A DNA stretch of 64,000 nt from a virus: IMG/VR virus record IMGVR_UViG_3300045988_138996, positions 64,001 to 128,000 of that record, one strand, 5' to 3'. The notes under the pieces are model-generated. The model saw only the letters and a list, made by a program, of their open reading frames with translations. It was not told the origin of the DNA and did no database searches. A program made the translations under genes and the position numbers. Below are positions 26,914 through 58,933 of this stretch, piece after piece; the first letter of the stretch is position 1; the number at the start of each line of letters is the position of its first letter.

Positions 26914-26925
26914 ATTATTTAACAC

Positions 26926-28560: not shown

Positions 28561-28589
28561 ATTCTTATAAACAAGAAAGGATATTATAT

Positions 28590-30131: not shown

Positions 30132-30138
30132 TAAATTC

Positions 30139-30177: not shown

Positions 30178-30190
30178 GGAGACAATAGGC

Positions 30191-30439
30191 GTGAAAAAAT
30201 CTCAAGAAAATACTAATCAAATATTTCTGTATCTAAATCGTGGTTTACAAGATTACATTAATAGTTCTTTATTATCTGGTGAACATTCTAGTAATGTTAA
30301 GAAAGATATGGAAGAAATATGCTATAATATTATTAGTGAGCGTAATATTGAACTTAAAACGAACATTATTACGTTGATCAATAATAGAGTTCAACAATAT
30401 ATGAAATTATATAATTTAAAGGTGAAATATGCCAAATGA
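30191..30439 (+). CDS. hypothetical small protein
   Basis: 82-aa ORF with a GTG start after aggagac. Overlaps the next gene by 11 nt. Confidence 0.4.
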   Translation: MKKSQENTNQIFLYLNRGLQDYINSSLLSGEHSSNVKKDMEEICYNIISERNIELKTNIITLINNRVQQYMKLYNLKVKYAK

Positions 30440-34053: not shown

Positions 34054-34632
34054 ATGCAAAATAAAAAGAAACATAAATTCCAACAACAACGTGAAAAAAT
34101 TCAAATGCATGAAACAATCACGACACAAGATACTCCAGAAGTAACTGTTAAAGAAACGACTGAAGCCGATATAAAAGAAACGGTAAAAAAAAACGAAATT
34201 TCGGAAGAATCTACAAATTCTGTGAGTCAAGATTCTAATCTTGAATATGAATACGATCCAGCTGATGTTGAATATTTAACAATCGATAAAGCTAACGAAA
34301 TTCGTGAAGCATATCCTGGTCAATGTCGTCGATTTGCTTTTGATGGTGAACAAATGATTATCATTCGTAAAGTACAACGTGAAGAAGTACCATTGATGAT
34401 GAACTTAACACCGGATCAACAAGCATATATTAATTCTTTAGAAGATGAATATGAACAACGACGTGCTATCGAAGATGCTCGTAATTATAATTTAGTTAAA
34501 TATTTTATTCCGTTCCCATCTGCTGATCGTATTAATTATTTAATCGATAATTATGTTGGTTTTGTACCATTAGTATCTGATAGAATTTTACAAATTTCTG
34601 GTTTTACTGCATCTCCGATGGTGGAATTATAA
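34054..34632 (+). CDS. hypothetical protein (tail assembly chaperone position)
   Basis: 192-aa acidic protein upstream of the giant ORFs. Assigned by position only. Confidence 0.35.
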   Translation: MQNKKKHKFQQQREKIQMHETITTQDTPEVTVKETTEADIKETVKKNEISEESTNSVSQDSNLEYEYDPADVEYLTIDKANEIREAYPGQCRRFAFDGEQMIIIRKVQREEVPLMMNLTPDQQAYINSLEDEYEQRRAIEDARNYNLVKYFIPFPSADRINYLIDNYVGFVPLVSDRILQISGFTASPMVEL

Positions 34633-35435
34633 TGGAAGAACGTTTTGATGTTATATATGATCAGTTAAAAAATTACTATAAACATATCTTTACTTATTCT
34701 TCTTATGAGTTTCCTATTATTTATATTCCGTTAACTAGGGCTCAATATTATGATTTGTTCGAGGATCCTAATATGATGGATATGGAACGTGAAGATATTA
34801 TATGTAAAACTTGTATCGTATATCCTGAAAATATTAATATAGAAAAAATGCCAGCAGGTGTTGTTTCTGATATTGCTGATAAGATTTTGGAAGCTTCTTT
34901 TATGAGCGAAAAAGGACGCAAGATGTTATTTGCAGCAGCTGCTAAAAAAATGCAAAACGTCGATCGTCAAATTTCTTGTATTATTCACGAAGCATTTCCA
35001 GAATATGATATCGAAGATATCGATAATTGGAATATGTTACGCACAACAGACTTCCTTATTAGAAGTGAATGGATTCTTCGTACGATTCAAGGTAAGCCAC
35101 CGCTCGATATCGAAAAGATATTAACACAAGGCAGTGATATTACTTTAAAACCAGAAGATCCTCGATTCTATAACGAAGAAAAAGCAGAGTTTGATCGTTT
35201 ACGAGAAATCAATACTCCGGCTGAAAATAATAAACCTGTTCCTAAAAAGAAAACGACATTAAAACGTCCTCAACGTCGACGCAATCAAGTATCTGAAGAA
35301 CAACTTGCAAGTATGTTCCCAGAAGCATTTGAAAATGCTGGCGATGAAAAATCTTTTAAAGATATGGCTATGGGTTCTAAAAATCCTAACGATATGACGT
35401 TAGCAGAACTTGCAGAATTAAGAAATAATAATTAA
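34632..35435 (+). CDS. hypothetical protein (tail assembly chaperone position)
   Basis: 267-aa ORF whose ATG overlaps the previous stop (taATGg). Assigned by position only. Confidence 0.35.
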   Translation: MEERFDVIYDQLKNYYKHIFTYSSYEFPIIYIPLTRAQYYDLFEDPNMMDMEREDIICKTCIVYPENINIEKMPAGVVSDIADKILEASFMSEKGRKMLFAAAAKKMQNVDRQISCIIHEAFPEYDIEDIDNWNMLRTTDFLIRSEWILRTIQGKPPLDIEKILTQGSDITLKPEDPRFYNEEKAEFDRLREINTPAENNKPVPKKKTTLKRPQRRRNQVSEEQLASMFPEAFENAGDEKSFKDMAMGSKNPNDMTLAELAELRNNN

Positions 35436-35446: not shown

Positions 35447-38400
35447 ATGGTAGATTACTTAAAAAATGGCAGTGATAATGATTCTGCCTTCGAAGGTATA
35501 TCTAATCTAGTTGATGCAGCAGCGGTCGCCGGCACTATTGTCGGCACCGCTTTTTTGCTATCTAGAACAAAACAAGGTGCAAAATTTTTATCGGAAGTCG
35601 ATCCGATTATCGGTAAGATGTCTGATCGTATTGCTAGTATTAGCGCAGACGGTAGTAATCGTTTATCGATTAGCGAATCTATTCGTGGCATATCTCATAT
35701 CGATCAGTTTAGAAAAATAGACGAAGCATTTGCTATTAATAATACGAGCAACGTAGGTTTATTTCGTAATCTTGCCGATGCAGCTTACGATGCTGCCGAT
35801 TGGGAAGAGCGTGAACTAGGTCGACAATATCAAGCTAAAATATTTGGAGATATTGGCGACGCATTAAAAACACAAGGTATTCAAGACGGACAAGTGCAAT
35901 CTCTTATGGAGTTTGTTAGTAGTCGTTCTACATCGACAGTCATCGATAAAAATTCTGGTAAATTACAAGAAAGTTTTATTGCCGACGTTGAAAATCATTG
36001 GCATGATTTCTTAGAAGAAAAAGATGCTAAATTTAATGAGACAGTCGATCAGTCTATTCAAGCCTTACAAAATATTTCTAATCAGACATTCGACACGTTT
36101 AGTGATTTTAAATCATTAGATGAAAATATTATAAGAGCTCGTGAAGCACGTCAAGATTTTATTCAAGAAATTAATAGAAGTGCTCAAGAGGCATTAAAAA
36201 AACAAAAGAATGATATTACGTATCATACGATTGGTGACGTATTAGATAAAGATGAACTAAATCCAGAATTCGATTTTATTGTTCATGAAAAAGGTCAGAT
36301 GGCTCCTCTTGACGGGAGGACTGTATCCGATCGTTTATATGCACAAAATGACGATATCGTTACGCAAACTCTTGATACGATTAGACAATTAAGCGCTACA
36401 AAAGATGGTTATTATGTTGAAGGTCAAAAATTAAATACGCCTAATATTAATAAAATAATAGGTGGAGCTAAAGATTTATGGCACGAGACATTACCATACG
36501 CATTATCACATGCTGCAGATTTTAAAAATGTCGACAACTTAAAAGTCGAATATTTAAATAAATATGACTTTAAAGGCGTATTGGGCGACATCGTCGGCAA
36601 AGATAGTATCGTTCAAAGAATTGGCAATCGATTGTTTGAATTAAAATCTGACGGTACTCGTAATGAATTAGATACGAGTGATATGCGTTTTGTTCATGAA
36701 GATTCGTATGTCATTAAAACATCTAAAGACTTTTCTAATTATGGAAAAGTTAATTTTGATAATGGCAAGCAAAGAATCTTTGGAGAGACAAGTCGTAAAC
36801 GTACGTCTGATGTTTGGGGTAATAACTATCATACATATCTAAATAAAGATATAAACGAAATTGCAAATCATCCTGAAGAAAAAGCGATGATGGGTATTCG
36901 TAATCATAGTTTTAAACGTAGTATCGATTCATTAGATATTAAAGTAAAGCTAGACGATAAACTTCGATCTGAATTACTAAAGGCATCTGAAGATAATCCT
37001 GAATTAAGATATAAAATAGAAAGTATGCTCGATGTTATCGACGCTAAAACAGAGTCAGAAAAACGTAGAGTATTAAGGGATATCTCGACAGAAGGTACTA
37101 AATCATCTGAATTTCAACGGTTACAATCAGCAGCTATTCGTGGCCGTTCTATTAAACCTAAACTAATCGATGATTCTACATCTATTACACAAAAAACATT
37201 ATATGCTAAATTAAATAAATCACAGTCTATTGATGAAGCAGCTATTAATGAAATAATGGCATCACTTCCTGCTGATAGAGATAAAGCATTAGCATTTATT
37301 AATAAATTAAATGTACCAGAAACTGTTAAGTTAAATTTAAGAGATCGATATAATGTCGAACAGTTAAAAATTAGAACTAACTTAAATGAAATTACTGGCG
37401 AAAATCATGTCGATGCAACTGGTAAAGATTTAAGTATTGAAGACGCCAAGAGGATTCAGAATGAAATCGTAAGCAATCCTGAATTACAAAGAACATTAAA
37501 TCGTTATTTAGGATCAGGTAAAGATTATAAAGCTCGTTATGAATCTAAAAAAAGTTCATCTCGCTTAATAGCAATTAATAAAGGATTTGACTTAAAAGGT
37601 ATTATGTCAGACCTAAATAAGATGAACTATAATGGCATTAATAATCGTATAGGTCAAGGTCTTCGAGGTATGTTTTCCAATACAAACCTCGATCATTTTG
37701 CGTTTAGTTCTATCTTTGATAATAATGTAAACTTGCCGACAGCAAAACATCATGGACGTGATTTATCGATTGGTGGCAGCTTATTATATAAGATGCCAGA
37801 ACGTCTTAATGAAGGCTTAAATAATGGCTTCATAGACCAAGCTCTTGGTTTTGTTCATCCAATATTTGGCGAACGATTATCAGCTTATTTTAAAACCGGA
37901 TTAAGTCTTGGTTTTCATGAAGGCGATACGAGAAGTTTTGCGCAATTAAGTTATAACTTATTATTTAAACGTGTATTACCAGCATCAATTGCGTTAACTC
38001 AATTAGATTGGGCTAACGATACATTCGGAATTAATAAAAACTTCCAAATTGGCTTAGCTAATATGGATTTAGGTTTTAGAAAATTCACGGATGCTACCGG
38101 CTTAACAGATGTATTTAAGTTAGCTAAAATGGCTAACCCTGCCGCTCAATATATTAGTGGTGATTATCGTCCTTATCAGTCTTATGAAGAACGTTTAGAT
38201 TATTATCAAAACGGTAAGGATCCTATTAGATCTGGACGTTATTGGGTATGGGGTTCTTCAAATGAATTTCGTGGTTCTAGTATTTCATATTGGGAAGATA
38301 ATAGTTTAAAATTAGCACAATCTGATTATTATAATAAATCAGTATATGGTGGCTATTGGTCTAAATGGGCACATAGTCCTATTCCGACATTAACAAATCC

Positions 38401-41400
38401 TTTCTCTCCATTAGTATATGCTTTTAACCCATACTGGTTAGAAGAAAAACATATGGAGGATCGCCCATATCCATTATCAGCTCCTTTATTTGAACAAGGT
38501 ACATTACAAAGTTTAGTATTAAATCCAACGCTTGGCGAAATTATTAAACCACAACGTCGTTATCATGAAGATCGTATGTGGTTTGGTAAAGACGTTAAAG
38601 CTATTATGTACCAAATGAATCAGAAAATTCAACAAACTGCCGATGAAGATAGTCGTTATATTATTTTCCAAAATGGTCGTTTGGGCGTATATGATTTTAG
38701 AGCATTTGGTCATCCGACAGATACAGAATATGTACAAGGTCAAGAACAAGAATATACTGGACAAGCTCCGGCGTTTGCATCGGCTAGAGATTATTCTAAT
38801 TATATTAATAGTGATGGTACGATAGATGCATCGGCATATGCTAGTTTGCAACCAATTTCTCCTGGTGCAGGTGCTGCCGTATCAGCAATGAATAGTGCTA
38901 TTCAATCAGGTAGTTCTCCTTATACGAATGCTTCGGGTATGTATATTCAACAACGTATACGTCGTACACGAAGCAATAAAGGCACTGTTCAAGAGATGCT
39001 CGATAATGCCGACATGTATAATAACTTGATGAATTCGAGTGGTGGTCGTAGTTATCTCGATGAATTAATGACGACATCTCGTTTGTTAACTGGTATTTAT
39101 GGTTATGCAGCATCATCAGTATTTGGTCGAGATGAATCTAAGTTTATTGCCGATGCTGGCGATATTAATTCGTTTACTCGGAGATTCTGGGATTCTGGTA
39201 TCGGCGGTGTCGGCGGTGAACAAATGGAAATTATTCGTCGTTTCTTGCCAGAATATTCAAGACGACGTCGTATTAATCCATTAATGAATAAAATGGCTGA
39301 AGACCATCCATGGCTTCCAGAAAAATTCTATACAGGTGATCCTTTTAGTTCCTTACCTATGGGTGAAGCTCGTTTACCTGGTGAAGGTTATGAAGCTATT
39401 AATCAATTACATCCAGATCAGTTTGCTTCCGATGGATATGGTGCTATCGATCGTTATAAAATATTAGCCGATATTGCTCCGAATAGTGCTGAGTATAAAT
39501 ACTGGAAACAAATCGTCAAGATGATGAATAATGACGAGGCGAAGAAAGTATTAAAAGATACCGAAGAAATGGTTAAACATCAAGGAAAGAAACATGATTT
39601 CTTTGATTATAAATTCTTAGGCAAAACTACGACAGCTCTCGATGGACATATCGAACAAATATTATCGAACGGTAAATTTAAGTTAGCAGGCGACGATAAT
39701 TTATATCAAATTGCCGGCATTAAATTTAAAGATAATGGTTATATGTCTAAGAATCAGTTAAAACAAGTATTAACTGAAGGTTCTCATGTAACGTTACGTA
39801 TTGACGATGAAGAGCATAATCCAGATATTAATGCACCGCAAGCTCCTAGAAAAGCTGCCGTATTTTTAGATGGTGAAAATATTTCAGATACATTACGGCA
39901 AGTTGGTTTAGCTGATTATGATATGGAAGATACTTCAGCAGCAGGTGCTTATGCGAACTATGGATTAGTCGGAAGATTATTTGGTACGGCTGCCGAAATC
40001 ATAGCGCATGCTCCAATTCCGATTATTCACTCACAATTGATGCGTGTTAATAGCCCATTAGAAGAATATCGCTCCGATCAATTATATGGTACAGGATTTC
40101 AATCTTGGGATAGTATGTTAGCTTCATTTATATATCCGACATTCGAACAAGCTAAAACAGATTTTATGCGAGATGTAATATCTGATTCATTGTGGCGATT
40201 CTATAAAGGATATGAATCTGGCGCTTTAACAGAAAATATTAGTAAGCGTTCGACAACGATATTAAAAACTATTGCGACGTATAGTAATGGCACTGCCTTA
40301 GCAGGGGAAATTGCTGGACGTTTTACATTTACTGGCGCTAATTCATCGACTCGTCGTGATCAACTTGCTAATGCAGGTCGACATATCGGTAATATCTATT
40401 CGATGGTAACTTCACTTCAAGATCCTATGTATGCTGCTTATGCATGGGGACGAATGGGCTGGGATTCTTCTAAAGTATATGATTTATGGAAAGATGTCGG
40501 AAATGTAAATTTCGATTCTGTTCTCGATTATGCTGAGCATATGAATATACTTAAACCAGCAAAACTATTAAGTGAAGAATCAGGTGTAGCAGTCGATGTA
40601 ATTCAAGCTGCTCGTAAATTTAAATTAGGACGTATTTCTCAGGCAATAGCATTTGCTGCTGCCGGTACGGCTTTAGCTGTCGGTGAAGATAATCCGCTTA
40701 CTCGATTATTCGGTAAAGAATCTCATGTATATACTCCTGACACAGTAAAAGAACGTTGGGATACTGAAGATTATTTCGATAGATTACGTTATATTAAATA
40801 TATGGCATTATACGAAGCAGCTAAAGAAAAAGCCAAATCAGAAGAAGGCGTCGATGTCGATAAATTATATAAACATCAAGAAACTCTTCGTGCCGAGATG
40901 AATGGTGATGTAAGCATAACCGATATGATGTCGGCAATTCTTACATCTGGTAAACCTGCCGATGATCCGATAGCTCAATGGGTTCAAAAAACATTCGGTC
41001 GTTTAAGCGACGATATGACGACATTAGTAGCTGGCAAATATACTGAACAAGCGATTATGTTCCATCAAGTTGCAGAGTCAACTGTATATGCTTTAAATAA
41101 AGATAGCGAATATTCTGATATTATTCGTGCTTTACCAAATACGGAAAAAGAATATTTCGTAGAATTTGCTAAAGTTACAGACGAACGTCGTCGTAGAGAA
41201 ATTCTTAGAAACGTATCGCCATCATTAGCAAAAGCTTTAAAGCTTGTTTGGTATCAAGAAGATACAGATACAGAATCGAACGAATCATTCTTTGAACGTC
41301 ATAATTTGCCAGATCCATTATGGGCTGGTTGGGATGCGTCTACTAATTTAGATAATATTAAAGCAAAAGTTATTTATAACGAAGGTATGCAATATGCCGA

Positions 41401-41650
41401 CTACGGTATTTATTCTTCTTCATACGAAGATCCTGAAGTTATAAATGCTCCGAATATAGATAATATTCATGACGGTAGTAATCCGTTATCAGTTCGTGTA
41501 AATTTAAATACTGTATTAAGTGGTATTGGTTTAACAGATAAACGTATTCAAGTTAATCCAACACAAGATGAAGGTGTCATCGATGTTGTATCTAATGTCA
41601 CTGCAGTATTAGGATATAAAATAGAAAAAGCACTTTCAATTTTTAGTTAA
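35447..41650 (+). CDS. giant tail-module protein 1 (2067 aa; tape-measure candidate by position)
   Basis: An uninterrupted 6.2-kb ORF directly after the chaperone-position genes. N-terminal hydrophobic segment AAAVAGTIVGTAFLL and a later AIAFAAAGTALAVG. No enzymatic motif recognised. Confidence 0.45.
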   Translation: MVDYLKNGSDNDSAFEGISNLVDAAAVAGTIVGTAFLLSRTKQGAKFLSEVDPIIGKMSDRIASISADGSNRLSISESIRGISHIDQFRKIDEAFAINNTSNVGLFRNLADAAYDAADWEERELGRQYQAKIFGDIGDALKTQGIQDGQVQSLMEFVSSRSTSTVIDKNSGKLQESFIADVENHWHDFLEEKDAKFNETVDQSIQALQNISNQTFDTFSDFKSLDENIIRAREARQDFIQEINRSAQEALKKQKNDITYHTIGDVLDKDELNPEFDFIVHEKGQMAPLDGRTVSDRLYAQNDDIVTQTLDTIRQLSATKDGYYVEGQKLNTPNINKIIGGAKDLWHETLPYALSHAADFKNVDNLKVEYLNKYDFKGVLGDIVGKDSIVQRIGNRLFELKSDGTRNELDTSDMRFVHEDSYVIKTSKDFSNYGKVNFDNGKQRIFGETSRKRTSDVWGNNYHTYLNKDINEIANHPEEKAMMGIRNHSFKRSIDSLDIKVKLDDKLRSELLKASEDNPELRYKIESMLDVIDAKTESEKRRVLRDISTEGTKSSEFQRLQSAAIRGRSIKPKLIDDSTSITQKTLYAKLNKSQSIDEAAINEIMASLPADRDKALAFINKLNVPETVKLNLRDRYNVEQLKIRTNLNEITGENHVDATGKDLSIEDAKRIQNEIVSNPELQRTLNRYLGSGKDYKARYESKKSSSRLIAINKGFDLKGIMSDLNKMNYNGINNRIGQGLRGMFSNTNLDHFAFSSIFDNNVNLPTAKHHGRDLSIGGSLLYKMPERLNEGLNNGFIDQALGFVHPIFGERLSAYFKTGLSLGFHEGDTRSFAQLSYNLLFKRVLPASIALTQLDWANDTFGINKNFQIGLANMDLGFRKFTDATGLTDVFKLAKMANPAAQYISGDYRPYQSYEERLDYYQNGKDPIRSGRYWVWGSSNEFRGSSISYWEDNSLKLAQSDYYNKSVYGGYWSKWAHSPIPTLTNPFSPLVYAFNPYWLEEKHMEDRPYPLSAPLFEQGTLQSLVLNPTLGEIIKPQRRYHEDRMWFGKDVKAIMYQMNQKIQQTADEDSRYIIFQNGRLGVYDFRAFGHPTDTEYVQGQEQEYTGQAPAFASARDYSNYINSDGTIDASAYASLQPISPGAGAAVSAMNSAIQSGSSPYTNASGMYIQQRIRRTRSNKGTVQEMLDNADMYNNLMNSSGGRSYLDELMTTSRLLTGIYGYAASSVFGRDESKFIADAGDINSFTRRFWDSGIGGVGGEQMEIIRRFLPEYSRRRRINPLMNKMAEDHPWLPEKFYTGDPFSSLPMGEARLPGEGYEAINQLHPDQFASDGYGAIDRYKILADIAPNSAEYKYWKQIVKMMNNDEAKKVLKDTEEMVKHQGKKHDFFDYKFLGKTTTALDGHIEQILSNGKFKLAGDDNLYQIAGIKFKDNGYMSKNQLKQVLTEGSHVTLRIDDEEHNPDINAPQAPRKAAVFLDGENISDTLRQVGLADYDMEDTSAAGAYANYGLVGRLFGTAAEIIAHAPIPIIHSQLMRVNSPLEEYRSDQLYGTGFQSWDSMLASFIYPTFEQAKTDFMRDVISDSLWRFYKGYESGALTENISKRSTTILKTIATYSNGTALAGEIAGRFTFTGANSSTRRDQLANAGRHIGNIYSMVTSLQDPMYAAYAWGRMGWDSSKVYDLWKDVGNVNFDSVLDYAEHMNILKPAKLLSEESGVAVDVIQAARKFKLGRISQAIAFAAAGTALAVGEDNPLTRLFGKESHVYTPDTVKERWDTEDYFDRLRYIKYMALYEAAKEKAKSEEGVDVDKLYKHQETLRAEMNGDVSITDMMSAILTSGKPADDPIAQWVQKTFGRLSDDMTTLVAGKYTEQAIMFHQVAESTVYALNKDSEYSDIIRALPNTEKEYFVEFAKVTDERRRREILRNVSPSLAKALKLVWYQEDTDTESNESFFERHNLPDPLWAGWDASTNLDNIKAKVIYNEGMQYADYGIYSSSYEDPEVINAPNIDNIHDGSNPLSVRVNLNTVLSGIGLTDKRIQVNPTQDEGVIDVVSNVTAVLGYKIEKALSIFS

Positions 41651-41667
41651 TAAGTTAAGAGGTAACA

Positions 41668-44600
41668 ATGGCTTACGATAGTTTTATTATAAATTCGGCA
41701 TATAAACAAAGATCGTTTACGATGGCTGGATTTGATACGCTTTCTTCGTTAAATACGATGTTAAGCAACGTTCGTCTCGAAAGACGAAAGCATACCGAAT
41801 TACTTTTAAACACTACGACAACTATGCCAGTTGCCCTTAACGGTATGGCTAATAAAGAATATGTATTAGACGACAAAGCATATATTTTTGATATCGAAAC
41901 ATTGCCATCTATTAAAGTAGGCAATGAACAAATACCTGATATTATGTGGCAGTATACGGCTCGCCGTGAAGGTGAAACATATAATATGTTCTCTGGTATC
42001 GATGAAAAAGCAGAAACGGCTTATCGTAATTTATTTTTAAAACCAGATTTTAAATATGAAGAATTAAGCCGAAGTGAAAAGGTAGTTGCCGATACGTTAG
42101 CTCGTATCGGTAAAAACTACCGTGAAGGTTCCGGTAGTATTCCTGAAGCATTATCTCCATTAGGATATAAAGATTATGCCGACATGAAAAAATATCAAGA
42201 GCTAATCGAAAACGGTATTAATGCATTATCTAAAGAAGGCGATGCTACTCATTTAATAGCTAAAGAAATTGTCGATCATATTCATAAAGATACGACTCTC
42301 GTTACTTACAACGGTAAAGCATTTGACGTTAATATGACATCGCAACAAATAGCTCGTGATACCGGCATCGATAAAAAAGTTCGTGGTCTTGCTATTAATA
42401 AACTAAGTAAGGCTAATCATTATGATCCGTATCGAGAAATTCGTACGGCATATCAATTAAATCCACAATCAATGAAAGAAGCATATCGAGAACATATTCT
42501 TGGTAGCGATATTGCTAAAGAACGATTAATCGGCGAATTTACTGGTTGGTCTAACAAACAAACAAGCTTTGGTTTGGCAGTTGGTCTTGATGTTAATGCT
42601 GCGCATAGTGCTATCGAGGATACTGGCGTATTCGAAAATTTAATGAAAAATGCTGGCTTTAGAGCATTTATGGCTAAAGCTATCGAGATTAATAATTCAC
42701 CAAAGAATAAAGTTCAGTATAAAGTAAGTGCTGGTGCCACAATATTCAATACATCTTCATTGTGGAATCGTGATCGCGGCATTTTAATGTTTCAACAATC
42801 AGAAGATGGCGGTTATGAATTTCCACAATTTTCTGCTCGTGCTAATGATAACGGTGTTTTTACTGCTTATAATAATGCTCCGATTGTAACTAATTCTGCA
42901 TATAATGTAAAATTTGTCGGTCAACTTGATCGTAATGATTCTTCTCTCGGAGCTTTTGCTTATGAGCATGCAAATGAACTAGGCTTAAAAGGTAATGATG
43001 ATATTCATTATATTGCATTAGAAGAAGCAAGCGGACGTGGTCCTGTTCGTTATATTATGGGTTCTAAAAAAGTATTAGAAGATACGTTAACCGACAGCTT
43101 TAGAGTATTAAGCAACACCTCAGCAAATGGTGAAACGACATATAACTTTGAGCAAATTGTATCGGCTGCCAATTCTTTAGGCATCCCGATGGGACGACCT
43201 GACAATACGATGGATAAAGTTATAGCTGCATCAGCTAAACGTCAATCGTCTGCTAATGCTTGGGACAAAATTGAATCTGGAGCTTTTAATCGTGAAGCAT
43301 ATGTAACTGGCCCGTTAATTAAAAACTTTGCAGAAAATGAACGAGGCATGGCCCTTAATATTTTAGGCGATGCATTAGAACTTGGTACCGACGTAGCGAC
43401 TGCAGCTTCAGCTCGTAAAGCTGGAGATACTGGCGGTATTATTACCGACGACTTTATGAAACGTACCGAACAATTGTTCGGTATTGCTAAACAACATTAT
43501 GGTATCGATTCTAATGATCCTAAGAGTAAGATGTTCTCTGTTGCCGGCGTTCAAAAAATTATTGAAAATATTAATAATGAAGATGTATTATCTATGGTTA
43601 ATATGGTACAGACAGAAGCAGCTGCTCTTCCTGGCGTAAAAGATTATCACAAAACTGTAGCTATGAATTTATTAGCCAAAGAATATCATAAAGTATATGA
43701 TGAATTGCATCCAGAATATGGATACCGTGCATCGATATCTGATAAGATGTTAGATGGTATATCTAAAGATATGCATTTATCTGGTGGCGCTTTTTCATTT
43801 GATGTTCGACAAGAAAATGCTGAGAAGTCTATCGGTTCTATTAAGAATACGATGAAAAGATTACTCACACGACCTGGTCGTGAATCTGTTTCTCGCTCTG
43901 ATTATGTTAAAGGTTATTCTGTATTAGTTAAAAATATTTTCGGAGCGAAGAGTAGACAAGCTCAAGGCTTCGAAAATTTAGTCGAACGTCAAGGTTCTGA
44001 TATGACAGATTTTGCAGAATACATTTTTAGAAATGTACAGCAATTGCGAATCGATACATATCGAGACGGCAAGAAACATCATGAGATGTTTAGAACAAGT
44101 TCGACACCAAGCAAAGATGTTTCTTTGTTTAAAGATGACGACGAATTAGTTAATCGTTTACGTGCCAGCGTTATAAAGAATCTAAAAGCACTGTCTTCGA
44201 CGCCAGAAGATTCTGTTAATAGTATATATAACTATTTAATGGGTAATATTACTCGTAAAGATTTCGATATCTTTTCTAATCGTAATAATTATGCTGGTGC
44301 ATTATATGATCAAGTTTCTGATCATATGAAATCATTTGCTAATCAATTAGAATTCTTGGCTCATCAAAATCAACAAGATATTTTAATTAAAGATGGCAGA
44401 CTTATGATGGGCAAGGGGAATACATTCCGTGATATCACAGGAAATATTCCTTTACTAAAAAGATTAGATAGTGTTCCAGTTCTTGCCTTTGGCAATACTA
44501 ATATTGCTATTAATCCGATATTAAATGTTGTTGAGGGCGCTAAACCAAATGAAAAATTTGTGCAAATTGGTATCAAAGGCTTATCTACATATGATCATTT

Positions 44601-49377: not shown

Positions 49378-49402
49378 TTATATTTAATAAAGGAATTATC
49401 TA

Positions 49403-52400
49403 ATGGCGGAAGAACAAAAAAAGACTGAAGAACAAAAACCAGCTTCAACAAAAGAAGTCATGGATGATGCTAAGAAACCTAAAGAACCTAAAAAAGGTTC
49501 GATCGAACATTTGAACGATATCATTAAAGATACTCAAATGAGTCTTCCAGAAATTTCTGATTTTGAAGCAGGTGCTATCGATACACGCATATATGAAGAA
49601 CTTGCTAAACAAATGGGAAGTGATTTAGATGCGGCAGTTTTCTATCGTGAAGATCCGCCGTTAGAACATGTTGGTGTCGATAAAGTGAGAGGGCTGGCTA
49701 TGGTCAGCCTTCCTCCTTCTGCTTTCAGAATTAAGGAAGAGGATTTGCATGCTGGCTTTGTCGATGGCGATACATTATATGCTGATCTGCGAAAAGCCAA
49801 TGTAAAAGATCCAGAATTATTAGCCTTTTTAACTAAAGGTCAACAAAATATGAGAGCTTGGCTCGCTCAAGAAAAAACTAATTCTGAAGATGTATATGAT
49901 ATTAATAATGTAAAAGATGAAAACTATAGTCTCGATTATGACATGGGTTTTCGTTTTTTATTTTATGACGCACCTGAAGTATATCACTGGTCTGTTATTT
50001 ATGCGACCGATGTTATTAAAACTACATATGGCGAAGCTGTTAATAAATATAATGCATTCGTTACGAAGGCACATGATGTTAGTACAGTTGGCTTTGGTAA
50101 CAAATGGGCTCGGAATTTAGATTCTGACGAATGTACAATTGCTCAAGTAGCAGAATTTGATAATCGTTGGATTGAAGTAAATGAAAAACTAACGACAAAA
50201 CGATTCGGCGGATTATATCCATACGATAATTCTAAGAAGATAAATGGACGTGTTCCTGTATTTGGTTTATCAGCTGATGGTACAGAATATTCTTTATTAG
50301 AAACAGCATATGCTGCAGCTAATGAAGTTGTACATATGATTAAAACAGCTAAAGAAGTTCGTGCTGTTATCGATATTAATGGCTCATCTAAACAAGATCA
50401 GACTACGTCTTATCCTAAAAACTTTATGAGTTTTCCTGGTGATTCTTTATTAGCTAACTATGTTAATACTATTAATCAACGATTATTGAGTTTCCAAGAT
50501 CCGACAATTTTTAAAGAGACTGGTATTAATATGTATGGTCTCGAACATTATCGTCGTAATCTTGCTGTTATTTATGTTAAACAAGGCGAAAGTTGGATTA
50601 ACTTAAATAAATATATTATTTCCAAGAATCATCATGTTTCAATTTTAAAATATTCTGATTTTACAAATCCTAATTTGAAACCATGGTCTTATGAGTTCGA
50701 TAGAAAAGTATGGGCCGATGCTGTATGGAATATAACAAATCAATTAGATAAACGTCATGAAATACAAAATAAAGCATTCGGTACACAAAACATTACATCG
50801 GGATTAACATCGATTGCTGATTGGACATGTACATTAGGTGACGTAACATTATTTGTACCACCTATTTCGATTAGTACAGTTACACAAGCGAACTCTCAAA
50901 ATATTCCGTTAATGCGTGCTAAAGGTTCAGCTAATATAGAAAATGCTAAGCCAGATCGATTACTTCAATTAGAATTGTATTTTAATGAAGATCGTGGTAT
51001 CAATGGACAACCTGTTACGGTTGACACAAATTCTTCGGACAAAAAGAAACAGATAACATATTATATGAATGGTTTTAGATCGTTGTTGTCTGAATTTCAT
51101 TTCGTTCCGTATATGCCTATTGAAAATAAGTATATTAATGAAACGTTAGATATCGATGCTGTATGTTTTGAAGCTATATCGGTAGCAACAGTACCAAATT
51201 ATCCTAAGCTATTAAAAGTAACGTTACTATTAAGAGAATTTGATTATCAAGCTTTTATGCCTCAAGTTCCTAAACACAGAGAAATTGAAGGCGGCGAAGT
51301 CGTAAAATATCGTAATTATTTTTCTAAGACAATTAATTATGATTTATTGCGCTGGTATTATCAACGCCCATTATTATTGGGCAATGAATTGCATGATAAA
51401 CAGTATCCAATATTCTCGAAGGATTTTATGAAGCGGACATTGTTCGCTAATCGATCTGCATTGATGCCAGTCGATACATTAAATCCGAGAATTGATTTTT
51501 ATGTGCCAGACGAAGCTAAGTTAATTAAATTAGAAAAGATTCGTCAAACATATACTAAGACTAATAAAAAAACACCAAATGCTTATCGCCCATCTCCTGC
51601 CGATAAAGCATTGTTTAGTGAAGCTAATAGAGTATTTACAACATTAAAAGGTAAATACTTTGCAAATGAAATTAAAAATTTCTCTTCTAATAAAACTTCG
51701 CAATACGAATTCTTATCAGACGCTGGCAATAAGCTTACTAAATATTTAAATCAATTTAATATTCAGGCGTATTATGATATCGTAGAACCAAATATCGATG
51801 TTATAAATAAACTAAAAGATGCTGGTAGTTTTATATTAACAGGTGGCGATGCAAAACCAACTGTCGATTTTAATAATCCTAAGAGTACTCGTTTAATTCT
51901 TCATATTAAACCAACGACACAATATAATTCATTAGAAGATTCATTATTATTACGTCAACAATTTGCTTCGACGTTAACAAATGCTGGTTCTTCTAATATG
52001 GCAGAAAATGCTCAGAATTTAGATAATGGGCATCCTGTCGATACAGATGTATATAATAGTATTTTTAAAAACGAAGAATTTTCATTAAGTCTTATTGTTA
52101 AAGAAAATGACGGAAAATTATCTTTAGATTATTATCCATATGATACGGATTCTAAATTCTTAGAATATTGTGCATCTCAATTTAGTCGACTCGGTACTAA
52201 TGATGATACATATAATGCATTGTCTGGTAATGAACAGCAGTATGAAGAATATGAAGATTCTGAATTCGAACGATTAACGTCTATCGATTATCGATTATAT
52301 TTAAAAGATGTATTAGTGCAAGGCTTAACAGCTAACTTCTCTAATACATATGCTAATATGTCTGTCGACACTCATCGAGGGCAAGCACCTCAATATATGG

Positions 52401-55400
52401 GCGGTCAAGATGCAACATTAACATTCTCTGTTATGACATATGACCAAGCTACTGTCGATGCATTCGATAAGATTCCTAAGATTATTGCATATTTTAAAAA
52501 GAAATATCCAAATGCATTACCTTCGTACCCATTCAGAATTGAATCTGAATTTACTAAATTAATTGGTGTGTACGAAGTTATTGTCGATCAAGTAGCTATT
52601 TCAACTGTTCCTAATTATCCTGGATTGTTCCAAATTAAAGTATCGTTACGCCAAACAGATAGAACGTTGCGCAATCGATTTGCTGTATATAAACAATTCT
52701 CTGTCGAAAATTATGCATCTAATTTAGCAACAGCACAAAAAGCTGCACAAGCTGCTCTTGGATATTTCGATATCGATGCTAATTTATCTAAAGCTGAATT
52801 ATATCCAGATTTACAATTACCAACAATTAAAGAACTCGGTGAAATGGGTTTTGAATTTATTCGCTATAAAAACCCAGGTAATCAAGTATTTGTCGATCCT
52901 GATTTTTATTTCTGCTATCATGAAACACTATTCTCTGAACTATTAAGAGATATAGTTCTTATGGATAGTAAAATGTTACAGTTGTATAAAGAAGCAGATG
53001 AAAAAGGTAAGCCTTTAGATAAAACTGTCGAAATGACAGCTTTCGATGATACTGGACGTGGTGTCGAGTATTCTCGATCAGGTGGTATGAATATAGCATC
53101 TAATGGCGGATTAGCATTAGCGCTTGACAAAAAAGAATGGGATTTAACAACTCAAAAAATTAACGATCTTAAAAAAGAAGAAAATGATATGCGATTAAGA
53201 CTCGTTAAACATGGCGTCAATACTGGTCAATGGAAAATCGGTAAAAATGCTTCAGTATCATTCATGGAACCATATTATTCCTGGATGTATTATCATTTAA
53301 AAGATGATGTCGATTGGAATAACACAGGTAAAAAAGAAGCTGAAAAATCTGTTAAAGATGCAAAAAGAATTGATCAGACAAAAAAAGATTTAGAAGCTGT
53401 TGGTGGTTTTGCTCCGACATCTGGCATGGACGATAAACAAAAGAAAGATTATCAGGATCGAAAAGATAAAGGAACAGAAAATGCATTAAAATCTGTTCTT
53501 GTTGATTCTGTCGATACGTTTATGAACATTGCTGACGATGCTTTAAAATTCTTAAGCACGATTGCTATCGAAGAAGAAAATCAAGATAAAGTATTACTTC
53601 AACATTTTTACAACTTAATTGTCGAAACTAAGTCAGTTCAACAAAGTACATTCTCTGATTGGCAAGATAAAATTAATAGTACATTAAATAAATTCGTAGC
53701 CGCTGCAGTTTTGTCTGGTGTCGATAGTGATTTAAGTACTGAAAAACAACAAGAACTTGGCAAACAGTTTATAGCATTTACAGCCACAAAAAAATCTGCT
53801 AACGATTCAGTATTAGATCAAGCTGCTAAAAATCAACAAGCTTATAGTATGATGTTGGCTGGAGTAGATCCTAACGGGAGCCCTTCTAATAATGATGCTT
53901 TGTCTAAAAATAAATTTAATTTACGTTCGACAAAATATTTATATGAACAAGCTAAATTAAGTTATGACTTTGACAAAGATAAAGATTTCTGGCGTTACGG
54001 CTCTATTGTTGAGATGGGCGTCTTTGGTATTCCATGTTTTACTGAAGAAGAATTTAAATCTAATCCATTATTAAATTTAATGAATGTAGACTTTGCGGCT
54101 CGTAAGAAAAAATTTACCGATAAAAAATATACATTCTTAGATTCTGATCATTATTACTTTATCGATCCATATTATCAAACTTCTGATTATAGCGAAACAA
54201 TGGCATATATGAAAGGTTGTATGACCGATTATTATTATGCTAAAAATGCATTCCTTCGTAATATGTTATTCTGGATGTGTACATTAATTAAGAATAATAT
54301 TATGCCAAATTACATGACAGATATTTTATTTAATAATGCTGATGGCGAAGTGTCTGCATATGAATATATGAAGGATATGGATTTATCTAAAGACATTCAA
54401 GAAAAGAATGTTAATACGATGAAAAACTTCGTTAAAGATAATCAAGAAAAGTTTGTAAATGGTAAATTATTTGTATGCTATTCTTTAACAGCTCTTGCTA
54501 AAGATAATGATTTCATCAAGAAAATTACGACTCGCAATTATAATTCTTTAAATGCTACGACACATAAAGTATTAACACCAGCATTAAGTGTAACAGCGCC
54601 ATTAGAAGATAGTGATATGATTCTTCGTCGCTTATTATTTGCATTAGTGCCTGCCGGTATTATTGAGAAAGTCGAAGAGCTTGGTGTCGATATTAGTAAT
54701 AATAACCCGATTAGTCAAATTGAACGTGATTATTCTCAAAAATTAGAGCTTGAAGCAAACTCTAAAGCAAACTTGCCAAGACGTGTTCGTGATTCATTCC
54801 TCGATATGATTCAAACAGATGTTCGAGGCAGAATGCTTAGAGGCTTCCCAACATTCCAAGTTATGTTTATCGACGAAGGATTAACATCTGGATTCTGGAA
54901 AATGCACGATAGTTTTTATAGTACGAATGCTATTAGTTCTATACAAGTTGTTAAATCTAAAAATATTGCGGCTGATACAGCCACAATTCAGATTAATAAC
55001 GCATTCCAAAATATTCTTGCCGAATACGATTCAGATGGCGATAATGATAACTACGTACAACAATTACAAAATGGCTTAGCAGCATTAAATAACTGGTATG
55101 ATAGTATATTTAACCCTAGAACATTTGTTCGTAACGCACAACAAAAACAAGATATGATTCCAGAACGAGCATCTATTAAATTAGTAGCCGGTGCTAGAAT
55201 TCATATTCGTATGGGTTATTCAGCTGATGCGGCAAAGTTACCTCCGATGTTTAACGGTATGATTACCGAGATTATTGGTGGCGATGTTGTTAATATAACA
55301 GCGCAAAGTGATGGTATTGAATTATCAAATCCTATCCGTGAAGATAACTATGGCGATCGTATTAAAAACAGAGGCGTACATTATTTCCAAGATAGTCCAT

Positions 55401-58400
55401 ATGGTAAATCATTTGGCGGCGTTTCTCCTCGAGTATTAATTAGCTCATTCTTAACTTCTCAAGATCAAAATTCATTTAGTAAGGTATTTAGAGAAAATAA
55501 TTGGAATGTTCTATCTAGAGTATTCTCTAAAAATCCATTTGGTATTTATCATTTTGGCGATGCATATTATCGAGATATATTTGCAAATGGTGAACCAGTT
55601 CAAAACATTTATGAGGTAACTAATGATGGTTCCGCTCATTATTATAATAGTCGTATTAATAATGGTATCTTAGATAGCTTGAATCCTTTATCAGATGGTA
55701 ATCGTATCATTACTGAACAAGGACAAGAACGACAAGAAGATACATGGACTATTAATCAATTAGCCAATACGTTTGGATTAGGTACACAATCTGGTCATCA
55801 ATATATCGATATTAAAACACAAGGTCGTACTGTTTGGGATATTCTTCAGTTCTCAGCAAGTGCAGAACCTACTTATATTGGTGCCGTTACTAATTTTGGT
55901 TTTAGAAGTACAGCATTCTTAGGCAAGCCAGATTGGTATTATGCTTATAAATATGTTAAACAAGGCAAGGATCATAATATAACAGAAAAACGTAAGCCAT
56001 ATTCTCAATTCCATATGTATTGGTCTGATCATGATATTATGTCTAATCAAATTCAGACTAATATTAATAAAGTAGCAATAGTTGCTAAAGGCTTATATAA
56101 TTTTGAAGACGTTAAAAAATCAACACCTGATGTATATCTAGATCGTGATATTTATCCTGAATACCAACGCTCTATCGTTGTCGATACATGGTTACATGCT
56201 CGTACTCAAATTAATACATCGTCTGATAATACATTTACGATTGATAGTGAAATTGGTTCGCTCGATAATTATGCTACAACTACTGGTTTAGTTATGAGTA
56301 TTCCAGGTGCAGCCTTGGGTTCTGAAGGTGGTTTCCTTGGTATGGCTGCTGGCGGTGCTGCTGGGTTTGGTATCGGTACGCTTATTGAAAAAGGCATTAA
56401 ATCTTTAGCCTCTTGGGCCGTTACAAATTGGTTCCCTCCAGAATTCGGTGGCAGTGAACATAATCATGAAAAAACAGCTCGTAATATGACAATTAGCCGA
56501 TTAAAGCGTTCGGTCGAACAAATTTATTCTGGTAATTTAGTCGTATATGGTGATCCATCTGTTAAACCACATGATAGAATTGCTATCATCGATGAACCAA
56601 ATAGCATGACTGGTCAAGCTAAGGTTCGTGATGTTGTTCATATGATGTCGGTAACGACTGGTTTCGTTACGACAATTACACCCGATGCGATTGTCGATCC
56701 TTTAAATGATATGACAACAAAAGAAGTTAATATGTCATTTATGTCGACAGCTACTCGTTATACAACATATGCAATGGGCTTATATAATTTATCGCGTTCT
56801 TTATTAGTTCAGGCTTTATACGATGACTTTGTCGGAGCAGTCGTTCGATCTGAAGGTTGGTTTGCTGAACGTTATGCTAGTAAAGTGCAAGGATTAATGG
56901 AACATAATAAAAATCCATTCTATAAACTTGAATCCTATAAAGTTCGCAAACAATTGGCTCTCGATAAAATCGACGAACAAATTTTAAGTCTTCAAAATAA
57001 AAAAGTTGCTGGCACATTAACTCATGCAGAAAATGAAAAAATCACGATGCAGCTACGTAATTTATTAGCTCGTCGAGAAAAGATATCTTCTATTTCTACT
57101 GCAGGTAAAGTACAATCAGCATTAGGAAATGCTCATAAAACATCTCGTGAGTATATTTTGCAACATCTTAATGATTGGATTAAAACTAATACTGAGTTTG
57201 AATTAGCTAAAAAACAAACGGCTGAAAAATTTGCATCGTTAATGAGCGAAGATATAAAAAAAGCTAAAGATGATTACTACAAAGCAGCATCTCAAAAAGG
57301 ACGTGAAAAATATGTTCGTGACCAAACAAATACATTATTTGAATCCTTAAACAAAGGCGATGCTAAAAAAGCAAAAAGCATAGAAGTAGATGCCCCTGTA
57401 TTTGATGAAAATGGCAATGCTGTTTTAGATGAAAACGGCAAGCAAAAAACTGCGAAGAAAACTATTAAGCTTAACAAAGGTAAGAAAAATGCCAGCAAAG
57501 AATTACAGAAGCTTTATGAAAAGCAATTCAATAAAGAGTATGATATAATTCTTCGCAATAAAGAAATGGCGTTAAGAAAATCTGTTCAAAAAGTCGAAGC
57601 AGTTACGAATCGAATTTCTTTAGTTAATAATACTGAAAAAGGTACTAAGGTCTTAGATGAAATAAAAGAAGTGTTATCTACATCTAAAACAATTACGCCT
57701 GATAAGATTACAGAAATTACTAACGATGTTCTCAAGACTGGTGGTCTTGGTTCTAAGGTCGAAGCATTTGCTTCTAGTTTCTTAGGTAAGAAAATCGTAG
57801 GCTTTGTTAGTAAAGGTTTGCGTATGGCAGGTAATCCTCTCGTTATTTTAGGCTCCTTTGTATTAGGACGTTGGGGCGACATGATTAAAAACTTTATAGA
57901 AAACTATAAAGTATTATGTGTAACGCCACTATTAAAACGCGGTATGCCATTTATTCCAGCTTGGGGCGGTAATTCTGGTACGATATTTATGAGTCCGACA
58001 TGGGGCCAACGTGGACCAATGTTAGATCTTATGGATAATTTATTTAATTATCGCATTACTAAAACAAATAATGGCGCAGCCGATACATGGGAATATGCTA
58101 AAATGAGTGGCAGTTGGTTATTAAATGCATTACTTGGCGGCGGCCCTGGTGAAGCTATGGAAAAATATGCTTTACAAACTGATAATATGATGAAAGCTAA
58201 TGATCAAGGTGGTCAGGTTACTTATACGATGACTGATAACTATGTATCGTCATTATTCCAATATGGTGATATTCGTACGATGTCTCAAATCGTAAATGTA
58301 AACGATAAAACTATTAAAGCCGAGAAAGAATTATCACGCGCCAATGCTAAGATGTTTATGCATCCTTTCGATATGACAATCTTTAATGATACGACATTGT

Positions 58401-58933: not shown

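Follow-up and report, generated by a model that had tools for sequence, protein, structure and literature searches.

Predicted RNA polymerase-type and exonuclease modules in a giant tail protein of a contractile-tailed jumbo phage

Three consecutive giant open reading frames (ORFs), adding up to 7812 amino acids (aa), are carried by a 64,000-nucleotide stretch of the IMG/VR virus record IMGVR_UViG_3300045988_138996 (positions 64,001 to 128,000), referred to below as the window. The window is the structural arm of a large myovirus, and the three ORFs, named ORF1, ORF2 and ORF3 in 5' to 3' order, constitute the tail core of a contractile-tailed jumbo phage of about 230 kb, which belongs to the lineage of Bacillus phage 0305phi8-36 and is found in human-microbiome metagenomes. 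Judged by sequence, the arrangement is the gp145/gp146/gp147 signature of that lineage and was already described in 2007. What is new, and appears undescribed, is the presence of a polymerase-type barrel together with an exonuclease in the protein that occupies the tape-measure slot of these contractile-tailed jumbo phages, ORF2 in the window. The best explanation, held here with moderate confidence, is that of a 0305phi8-36-type trio in which ORF3 is the baseplate hub, ORF2 is the counterpart of gp146 with two acquired enzyme modules and ORF1 is a gp145-type protein, and in which ORF2 would leave the tail before the DNA does. The direct evidence consists of homology and synteny, of the domains and motifs present and of the conservation of catalytic residues.

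The three ORFs all lie on the plus strand and begin with ATG. ORF1 spans 35447-41650 (2067 aa), ORF2 41668-49377 (2569 aa) and ORF3 49403-58933 (3176 aa), separated by only 17 nt (41651-41667) and 25 nt (49378-49402); the original prediction, made from the letters alone, had given the same coordinates, lengths and gaps, and these agree with the ORF list. A Shine-Dalgarno-like AAGAGG or AAAGGA is found 6-9 nt 5' of each ATG. Since every ATG has its own ribosome-binding site, these are three separately initiated genes, and a single frameshifted gene was rejected on the same ground. Chance ORFs were likewise rejected: at the G+C content of the window (~33%), stops are expected at ~0.075 per codon, or about one per 13 codons, and the probability of frames this long is below 1e-69 (1e-70 to 1e-107). 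Gene calls on numerous metagenome contigs (210-236 kb) yield identical or near-identical versions of the three proteins. Inteins or introns were discarded as the source of the large size, because no frame is interrupted and conservation extends from end to end.

A nucleotide search against phage records gave no match, and when the full-length proteins were compared with Pfam, PHROGs, NCBIfam and PDB sequences, the only matches were RNase_H_2 for ORF2 and PHROG 20474 for ORF3, to which family searches with 600-aa tiles added nothing. The same trio is present in Acinetobacter phage vB_AbaM_ME3 (ME3; 1263, 1603 and 2329 aa), in Bacillus phage vB_BauM_KLEB27-3 (gp031 plus gp033, gp034 and gp035, of which gp031, gp033 and gp034 are annotated as structural), in Bacillus phage vB_BceM_WH1 (gp096, gp095 and gp094, all labelled virion structural), and also in Bacillus phage Edson and Moorella phage MTATph1. 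The middle proteins of WH1 and KLEB27-3 count 2515 and 2434 aa, and the gp145-type protein of WH1 has about 2000 aa.

An RNA polymerase beta'-type barrel in ORF2

Profile and fold searches place an RNA polymerase (RNAP) beta'-type double-psi beta-barrel at aa ~2000-2130 of ORF2 (47665-48057, plus strand), with the catalytic-loop motif DHDGD at aa 2119-2123 (48022-48036, plus strand), in which the DxDxD pattern is invariant. The region aa 2080-2123 reads DRQPHNYAKSMAFAKVYYD...NMLAKADHDGD and can be compared with the beta' pattern NRxPxLHxxS...NADFDGD, the segment DRQPHNYAKSM (aa 2080-2090) that precedes DHDGD being the one to set beside NRxPxLHxxS. In a ten-sequence alignment with ~20% pairwise identity, residues D189, D191, D193, R151 and P153 are invariant, and the DxDxD motif is kept in all 52 of the 52 close homologues. 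When a four-sequence profile of the barrel was searched against the PDB, 17 of its 19 matches were the largest subunits of RNAPs, aligned at the catalytic loop (NADFDGD; best E 0.0014). The matched enzymes comprise those of phages AR9 and phiKZ, plant Pol V, Pol I, archaeal Rpo1N and African swine fever virus (ASFV). A wider profile of ten sequences gave the same picture, only weaker.

Modelling of the fold leads to the same family. A first AlphaFold2 (AF2) model (aa 1400-2569, 4 sequences) was of low confidence, with a predicted local distance difference test (pLDDT) score of 44.6, 58% helix and 8% strand; it was set aside, as Foldseek matched it only to helical bundles, a meaningless result. 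A second model (aa 1895-2425, 8 sequences including distant members; mean pLDDT 49.5) is usable only at aa ~2006-2116, where six strands are predicted at pLDDT 62-85. In a Foldseek search of this model against the PDB, ranks 1-42 are all beta' or largest subunits of RNAPs (best E 3.2e-4, probability 0.95), spanning cyanobacterial, E. coli, archaeal, Pol I, Pol II and chloroplast enzymes, and rank 43 is the double-psi barrel of p97. A fold search of BFVD has two unannotated proteins at the top, one of them ME3_36, the slot protein of phage ME3. They are followed by nudivirus LEF-9, a Klebsiella jumbo-phage protein and the RNAP subunits of Marseillevirus, mimivirus, ASFV and pandoravirus.

Two points weigh against the assignment: the E values are each modest, both by sequence (0.0014 at best) and by fold (3.2e-4), and the two models are poor overall (mean pLDDT 44.6 and 49.5). 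As sequence and fold agree with each other, the beta'-type barrel of ORF2 is considered established with high confidence. The barrel motif is shared by KLEB27-3 gp034, WH1 gp095 and ME3_36, while the DxDxD motif is absent from 0305phi8-36 gp146 and Moorella CDS0027, so that the body of the slot protein comes with a barrel in the window phage, WH1, KLEB27-3 and ME3 and without one in 0305phi8-36 and the Moorella phage.

The predicted exonuclease domain and the ORF2 family

Near its N-terminus, ORF2 carries a predicted DEDDh 3'-5' exonuclease domain (aa ~60-330; 41845-42657, plus strand), which matches Pfam RNase_H_2 with 26.6 bits against a cut-off of 22 bits. The three motifs stand in the expected order: YIFDIETLP (ExoI; D75, E77), LVTYNGKAFD (ExoII; N215, F219, D220) and AAHSAIEDTG (ExoIII; H313, D318). 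Across five sequences at 19-68% identity, none of the seven motif residues varies. A profile of the domain found only E. coli exonuclease I in the PDB, at motifs II and III and weakly (E 1.7).

The family is rare, with 52 mostly close relatives in a set of 5.8 billion proteins and 12 representatives among 1.84 billion, and a tblastn search of ORF2 against phage records gave no match. Alignment with distant members resolves three conserved modules, namely the exonuclease, the beta'-type barrel and a C-terminal module. In IMG/VR, relatives of the barrel occur at 16 loci on contigs of up to 236 kb. Several of these loci bear sample numbers of the 7000000xxx series, which we take to be Human Microbiome Project assemblies. 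No relative of the barrel was found in 185,579 species-representative bacterial genomes, and there is thus no sign of prophage forms.

An exonuclease and a polymerase-type barrel in one chain bring to mind a DNA polymerase-like or repair enzyme, for example one that fills or trims the genome ends on entry. DEDDh domains are the typical proofreaders of DNA polymerases, and archaeal PolD pairs a two-barrel core with an exonuclease. Such an identity for ORF2 is nonetheless very unlikely: the best matches by both sequence and fold are RNAP beta' subunits, no PolD DP2 chain is among the 50 best Foldseek hits or the profile hits, and the two domains of ORF2 lie ~1700 residues apart.

It is also conceivable that ORF2 is a purely structural tape measure, whose enzyme motifs are inactive relics of captured domains or serve a structural purpose. 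The hub and tape-measure proteins of the 0305phi8-36 lineage are known to swap domains freely (Hardies et al., 2007; PMC2147016), gp146 and Moorella CDS0027 manage without the motifs, and the second barrel that a polymerase would need was not found in ORF2. Yet relics would be expected to drift, and here the three aspartates, the Arg-x-Pro and the seven DEDDh residues are invariant among homologues at ~20% identity, the motif being kept in 52 of 52 close relatives. A structural role alone is therefore considered improbable.

ORF2 as the occupant of the tape-measure slot

ORF2 lies between the homologues of gp145 and gp147, as gp146 does in 0305phi8-36. The record of that phage lists, in order, the chaperonins gp143 and gp144, gp145 (1930 aa), gp146 (2537 aa) and gp147 (1903 aa), sizes close in kind to the 2067, 2569 and 3176 aa of the window, and the order from sheath to baseplate is the same. 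In the record, gp146 is labelled 'hypothetical tape measure protein' and gp147 'baseplate hub protein', and both gp145 and gp146 are reported as detected in virions by mass spectrometry. Hardies et al. (2007) had named gp146 the tape measure on the basis of tail length and noted that the chaperonins are one gene removed from it. The window repeats this layout, with the ORF2 gene placed between a tail chaperonin gene and the baseplate hub and ORF1 intervening just as gp145 does.

The C-terminus of ORF2 provides the link to the other slot proteins. The original prediction had pointed to Gly/Ala-rich hydrophobic segments in each ORF, and all four that it quoted were located, beginning at aa 24 of ORF1, aa 2457 of ORF2 and aa 2310 and 2811 of ORF3; only those of ORF1 and ORF2 pass the Kyte-Doolittle threshold for a membrane helix. 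The ORF2 segment (aa 2457-2475; 49036-49092, plus strand) is the strongest membrane-type helix of the trio (Kyte-Doolittle 2.18). An equivalent helix is found ~110-130 aa from the C-terminus in ME3_36, WH1 gp095, 0305phi8-36 gp146 and the homologues P0199, P0203 and P0207. It is followed by a tail at aa 2476-2569 ('GGYIINV...'; 49093-49374, plus strand), which inspection of the C-termini shows to be common to the tape-measure-slot proteins. This C-terminal module recurs in KLEB27-3 gp034, WH1 gp095, ME3_36, gp146 ('AGYEVNV...SWLEKQFGDYI') and Moorella CDS0031. The C-terminus of gp146 is the best-scoring match of a profile of the ORF2-family tail, though a weak one (E 0.036), and the C-terminus of WH1 gp095, a full-length homologue of KLEB27-3 gp034 that carries both enzyme motifs, matches that of gp146 with E 0.004. 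Given this recurrence, we read the slot proteins as products of a single gene whose C-terminal anchor is conserved while the body has varied in the course of evolution. A membrane helix and conserved tail at the C-terminus are also a common feature of tape measures.

Two relatives show the module in unusual settings. P0207, at 836 aa, comprises only the barrel region, a linker of ~330 aa, the hydrophobic helix and the C-terminal tail, and may represent the module reduced to its minimum, or else a gene call that was cut short. In MTATph1 (23672-31028), the slot gene is apparently split by a transposase into CDS0027 (1309 aa), the transposase CDS0028 and CDS0029; CDS0031 (313 aa), downstream of the insertion, has the C-terminal helix-plus-tail module of ORF2 and gp146.

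Some observations speak against ORF2 as the tape measure. No similarity to gp146 was detected by BLASTP or hidden Markov model (HMM) comparison outside the C-terminal ~100 aa of ORF2, and even that is weak. In most phages it is the position directly after the chaperonin gene that marks the tape measure, and in the window the chaperonin gene directly precedes ORF1, not ORF2. Chou-Fasman helix-propensity profiles were uninformative as to which of the giants is the ruler. If the whole chain of ORF2 served as one at ~0.15 nm per residue, its 2569 aa would correspond to a tail of ~385 nm.

ORF1, a gp145-like protein

ORF1 (35447-41650, plus strand) is a homologue of 0305phi8-36 gp145 (tblastn/BLASTP E 6e-47), with further homologues in Moorella CDS0026, WH1 gp096, KLEB27-3 gp031 and gp033, and ME3_35, and it is predicted to be a virion protein of the same kind. 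In KLEB27-3 (9827-16980), the gp145-type gene is divided into gp031 (1340 aa) and gp033 (677 aa), with the 636-nt ORF gp032 between them; insertion of an intron or a mobile element is a possibility. The hydrophobic helix near the N-terminus of ORF1 (aa 24-38; 35516-35560, plus strand; Kyte-Doolittle peak 1.81) has a counterpart at a similar position (aa 33) in gp145 and Moorella CDS0026. Conservation is concentrated at aa 803-2047 (37853-41587, plus strand), where three collinear BLASTP blocks show 25-31% identity with the gp145 homologues. Searches of ORF1 against Pfam, NCBIfam, PHROG and PDB sequences gave no match, nothing came from comparing a six-homologue profile with PDB sequences or from scanning each of the six homologues with Pfam, and motifs of polymerases or nucleases were not found in ORF1 either. 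It may be a protein of the inner tail, one that is ejected, or the actual tail-length ruler.

The last of these deserves closer consideration, as it would make ORF1 the real tape measure and ORF2 a separate ejected pilot enzyme, held in the tail or the head and measuring nothing. The chaperonin homologue ends 11 nt 5' of ORF1, a protein with a hydrophobic helix of its own at the N-terminus, and the chain of ORF2 contains globular enzyme domains besides its one strong membrane-type helix. Both proteins are moreover free of cysteine, with none in their 4636 residues (35447-49377), against 11 in ORF3. On the other hand, ORF1 is the most conserved of the trio among the metagenome variants (94-98% identity against 87-93% for ORF2) and can be aligned to proteins of Bacillus, Moorella and Acinetobacter phages, whereas tape measures are usually the fastest to diverge (PMC2147016). 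Its conserved part abounds in invariant motifs of Trp, Tyr, Pro and Gly, as folded domains typically do, and the C-terminal membrane helix with its conserved tail belongs to ORF2. ORF1 as the ruler is accordingly regarded as unlikely, and ORF2 is retained as the counterpart of gp146.

ORF3, a predicted oversized baseplate hub with a nuclease-like domain

ORF3 (49403-58933, plus strand) matches PHROG 20474 (E 8e-146) and 0305phi8-36 gp147 (E 3e-56), and tblastn and BLASTP add Moorella CDS0032 (E 8e-74), KLEB27-3 gp035, WH1 gp094 and the hub ME3_37 as homologues. Its hub core (aa ~1798-2445; 54794-56737, plus strand) aligns over ~650 aa at 28-31% identity (BLASTP) with gp147 aa 839-1410 and is conserved in 14 diverse homologues, the alignment of which contains 64 invariant columns. 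In the PDB, the hub-core profile matched only 9euf_E, a staphylococcal myophage tail protein named 'ORF56 / Peptidase C51 domain' (E 0.0015, at GDPxxKPxDR), which we take to be the tail-associated lysin of the K-type staphylococcal myophages. HMM comparison had earlier put gp147 into the T4 gp27 / P2 gpD hub family (E 6.5e-8), where it was termed 'hyperplastic' (PMC2147016). Because of its homology to gp147, taken with that published assignment, ORF3 is identified by sequence as the baseplate hub; it would then belong to the structure of the tail tip and not to the cargo.

The N-terminal part of ORF3 (aa ~115-400; 49745-50602, plus strand) resembles staphylococcal nuclease (SNase). The hallmark motifs VDGDT (120-124), FRFLFYDAPE (183-192) and YRRNLAVIYV (383-392) are present in order, with the domain split by an insertion of ~190 aa. 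When an eight-homologue profile was compared with the PDB, 15 of the 17 matches were staphylococcal nuclease or thermonuclease, weak in each case (E 0.1-0.6). Three homologues (P0057, P0067 and P0068) are named 'SNase domain protein' or 'thermonuclease' in the source databases, and in two homologues a nuclease domain of another kind is found, Endonuclea_NS_2. A staphylococcal-nuclease domain has been reported for the hub of a prophage relative (PMC2147016). To be set against this, the call depends on three motifs, all of them short, and on E values between 0.1 and 0.6, and Pfam SNase (PF00565) matched neither ORF3 nor 13 of its homologues. An N-terminal nuclease domain in ORF3 is considered likely, not proven. 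Together with the DEDDh exonuclease and RNAP-type DxDxD motifs of ORF2, these staphylococcal-nuclease motifs bear out the claim that at least two of the giant ORFs carry nucleic-acid enzyme motifs.

The remaining two hydrophobic segments belong to ORF3, and both are below the membrane-helix threshold. One is a Gly/Ala-rich loop within the hub core (aa 2310-2328; 56330-56386, plus strand), and Gly/Ala-rich insertions are found at the same place in the homologues. The other, NPLVILGSFVLGRWG, is at aa 2811-2825 (57833-57877, plus strand).

Relative to gp147, ORF3 is ~1300 aa longer and is without the lysozyme, NlpC and M23 domains reported for that protein, having the staphylococcal-nuclease-like domain instead. 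T4 gp27 has ~390 aa, which makes ORF3 about eight times as long. Homologous to gp147, and linked through it to the T4 gp27 / P2 gpD / Mu gp44 hub family of the literature, ORF3 lies just 5' of gpV-like and gpJ-like baseplate genes; it escapes the Pfam hub models, none of which matched, and it bears extra domains including the nuclease-like one.

These results bear on the view, put forward in the original prediction, that all three giants are ejected cargo akin to that of N4-like and crAss-like podoviruses and not tail parts. Enzyme motifs in ORF2 and ORF3 and hydrophobic segments in all three ORFs would fit it, and the virion RNAPs of crAss-like and N4-like phages are likewise fused to large proteins (Chaban et al., PMC10770324). 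For ORF3 it is largely refuted by the ~650-aa stretch of homology to gp147, which has been assigned to the gp27/gpD family, and for ORF1 it is unsupported. Kinship with N4 or crAss-like proteins was sought in PHROGs, Pfam, phage tblastn and PDB sequences and was found in none; neither N4 gp50 nor the crAss virion RNAP was ever returned above weak fold-level scores, the crAss-like entries of the BFVD search being weak at rank 10 and below (E >= 0.013). Further, the phage is a myovirus with sheath and tube, and the barrel of ORF2 is like beta' of multisubunit RNAPs, whereas the N4 enzyme is T7-like and that of crAss-like phages belongs to the YonO/QDE-1 clade (PMC10770324; PMC7824862). The cargo reading of the whole trio can hardly be upheld. 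Its other premise, that the trio holds the tape-measure slot, stands in so far as a chaperonin homologue precedes the three genes and falls for ORF3, which is the hub itself.

A proposed mechanism of enzyme delivery

From the above, we infer the location of ORF2 in the virion, its ejection, its enzymatic activity and the identity of the protein that sets tail length. By analogy with tape measures and with gp96 of Thermus phage P23-45, ORF2 would sit in the lumen of the tail tube with its C-terminus at the hub, to which the C-terminal module probably anchors it. Contraction of the sheath would expel ORF2 before the DNA, upon which the C-terminal helix could insert into the membrane. The barrel, ~330 aa upstream of the helix and ~450 aa from the C-terminus, would thus be positioned where the DNA enters. 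Unlike gp146, ORF2 would have acquired an exonuclease and a barrel with an intact Mg-binding DxDxD loop, and these polymerase-like and exonuclease modules might work on the phage genome as it enters or on nucleic acid of the host. The exonuclease of ORF2 and the nuclease of the hub, the latter acting at the tail tip, may process DNA ends or attack host nucleic acid. The lack of cysteine in ORF1 and ORF2 is compatible with unfolded passage through a narrow channel; it fits this scheme and proves nothing.

The contractile module, the oversized slot and the nuclease and polymerase motifs together make enzyme delivery through the tail a reasonable reading for ORF2, and the tail may inject enzymes ahead of the DNA. 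A contractile tail that delivers a nuclease and polymerase toolkit, as had been suggested, thus survives in part: the sheath, the motifs of ORF2 and probably those of ORF3 are in its favour, while in ORF1 no such motif was found.

Polymerase function and the second barrel

A two-barrel RNAP requires a second, beta-type barrel that supplies two conserved basic residues, and the attempts to find one in ORF2 weigh against polymerase activity. When the whole window was scanned in six frames with regular expressions for motifs of the beta subunit, no hit fell inside a real ORF. By eye, beta-like motifs can be made out at aa ~1410-1530 of ORF2 (EMFGK, VTVMMDYKPVGSQ, TKLFAESDK and GFGKAME). This region was rejected as a second barrel, since its seven-sequence profile matched only coronavirus spike heptad repeats and lipin, which are spurious. 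A comparison by hhalign with E. coli beta, for which an approximate query sequence was used, also gave nothing. A confident model of aa 350-1900 was not obtained, and no second barrel is claimed for ORF2. In this class of enzymes, sequence comparison usually fails to detect similarity beyond the DxDxD region (PMC10770324), so the missing match is weak evidence of absence, but the gap is real.

With this reservation, we put forward tentatively, as a possibility that falls short of being probable, that ORF2 is an active virion polymerase, carried in the tail tube and injected before the genome. It would represent a contractile-tailed clade that comprises the human-microbiome phage studied here, Bacillus phages WH1, Edson and KLEB27-3 and Acinetobacter phage ME3, and an uncatalogued double-psi-barrel family, in which a barrel nearer to beta' than to YonO, QDE-1 or P23-45 shares one chain with a DEDDh exonuclease. 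In its boldest version, each chain would contribute one barrel and the active site would arise by oligomerisation of the tape-measure copies.

The distribution of polymerases in the lineage also speaks for the main explanation. Phage 0305phi8-36 has a stand-alone YonO-like RNAP, gp99 (39027-42683 of its genome), while its gp146 is without DxDxD; tblastn found no gp99 homologue in WH1, KLEB27-3 or ME3, all three of which have the DxDxD barrel in the slot protein. As few genomes were sampled, this complementary distribution is only suggestive. Only the separate YonO-like RNAP is credited to 0305phi8-36 by Iyer et al. (2021), according to whom most other jumbo phages encode none. Phages of the lineage are absent from the survey of viral two-barrel RNAPs in PMC10770324, and a non-exhaustive literature search found no link of a two-barrel polymerase to a tape measure beyond the P23-45 study.

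Comparison with known polymerase-bearing virion proteins

The exonuclease motifs and the barrel distinguish ORF2 from its positional counterpart. Within the lineage, ORF1 and ORF3 are homologous to gp145 and gp147 and ORF2 has the C-terminal module of gp146, yet gp146 has neither the DxDxD barrel nor the exonuclease motifs; ORF2, WH1 gp095 and KLEB27-3 gp034 have both, and ME3_36 has the barrel only.

By analogy of function, the nearest system is the tape measure of siphophage P23-45, gp96, which has a fused and active virion RNAP (Chaban et al., 2024; PMC10770324). The logic proposed there is that the enzyme, expelled via the tail, meets the entering DNA. Like ORF2, gp96 is a giant protein in the tape-measure position with a DxDGD barrel and a membrane segment. 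The differences are also clear. The tail of P23-45 is non-contractile, whereas the window phage has a sheath; the RNAP of gp96 is N-terminal (DFDGD at 779-783 of 5002 aa), whereas the barrel of ORF2 is C-terminal (2119-2123 of 2569 aa), beside the membrane helix. In its R-x-P...S motif ORF2 follows the multisubunit beta' type, unlike gp96, and gp96 lacks the exonuclease domain that ORF2 has. Activity and both barrels are proven for gp96, while ORF2 is known from sequence and model, with one barrel detected. Alignment of the barrel profile to gp96 by hhalign covered only the 24-residue catalytic loop, at a probability of 1%, and the two are thus not close relatives.

Very large virion proteins that bring a polymerase into the cell are also known from crAss-like phage phi14:2 (gp66) and from N4 (gp50). 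These are podoviruses, in which the proteins are stored in or near the head, not in a tape-measure slot; N4 gp50 is T7-like, with a palm fold, and gp66 falls into the YonO/QDE-1 clade, in contrast to the beta'-like barrel of ORF2. The best sequence-profile matches of that barrel (E 0.0014-0.0024) are the split RNAPs of the phiKZ/AR9 type (PDB 7ogp and 7s00), which share the NRxPT...S...DxDGD pattern and whose beta' homologues are small polypeptides around the barrel. Those enzymes have separate, recognisable beta-type subunits and are encoded outside the tail module, whereas the slot protein ORF2 consists of one chain of 2569 aa in which no beta-type barrel can be recognised.

Implications

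Only P23-45, a thermophilic siphovirus, has been characterised as having a tape measure with a fused virion RNAP. If ORF2 and its relatives are active, tail-delivered transcription would also occur in contractile-tailed phages of Bacillus, Acinetobacter and the human microbiome, a new family would be added to the two-barrel polymerases, and the host-independent start of early transcription in some jumbo phages without an annotated RNAP would be explained. WH1, KLEB27-3 and ME3 are cultured, which makes the idea directly testable. The findings also serve as a warning for annotation, as enzymes can be concealed in giant tail genes behind labels such as 'tape measure' or 'virion structural protein', and they correct the reading of the third giant gene, a baseplate hub with a nuclease-like domain.

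The surrounding tail module and other features of the window

The landmarks of a structural arm are found along the window: a large terminase at 3783, the portal at 12973, the major capsid protein at 17906 and baseplate genes after 59 kb. Every flanking tail gene tested has a counterpart in 0305phi8-36, in the same order, so that the collinear block runs through sheath, tube, a gp142-like protein, chaperonin, the gp145-like ORF1, the slot protein, the gp147-like ORF3 and a gpJ-like protein. The sheath (1010 aa; 23838-26870, plus strand) matches the PHROG tail sheath families (best E 6.6e-54) and 0305phi8-36 gp139 (BLASTP E 2e-20), and its presence shows the tail to be contractile. These matches are confined to the C-terminal ~260 aa, and the N-terminal ~750 aa are unassigned extra domains. 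The tail tube homologue (30429-31679, plus strand) is related by BLASTP to gp141, a tube paralogue (E 2e-31), and to the tube protein gp140 (E 4e-13), and a homologue of the tube-related virion protein gp142 follows at 33406-34044 (plus strand; BLASTP E 1.4e-8 to gp142 and 4e-6 to gp140). The tail chaperonin homologue lies at 34632-35435 (plus strand; BLASTP E 7e-12 to gp144 and 1e-9 to gp143), the chaperonin role of gp143 and gp144 being that assigned in PMC2147016. A P2 gpJ-like baseplate protein (61967-62758, plus strand; BLASTP E 5e-7 to gp151) ends the block.

A 362-aa transposase ORF in the tail module (28590-29678; PHROG 506, E 2e-116), with a TnpB/IS200-IS605-like look, and a homing endonuclease at 27396 separate the sheath gene from the tube gene. 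Four ORFs (5776-6726, 7284-8387, 9035-10009 and 27396-28064) match the endonuclease PHROG 4645 with E values of 1e-31 to 9e-51, the one at 27396 also matching LAGLIDADG_3. The other three are situated in a stretch of 26-27% G+C directly 3' of the large-terminase-like ORF at 3783-5345 (520 aa), which matches only parts of the terminase profiles. Given the partial match and the adjoining endonuclease ORFs, the terminase gene may be interrupted by mobile endonuclease genes or introns. Finally, just 5' of the portal, a 551-aa ORF (11264-12919) matches tape measure, tail protein and endolysin PHROGs with its C-terminal region (aa ~380-550), which is probably a cell-wall hydrolase domain, unexpected in a head module.

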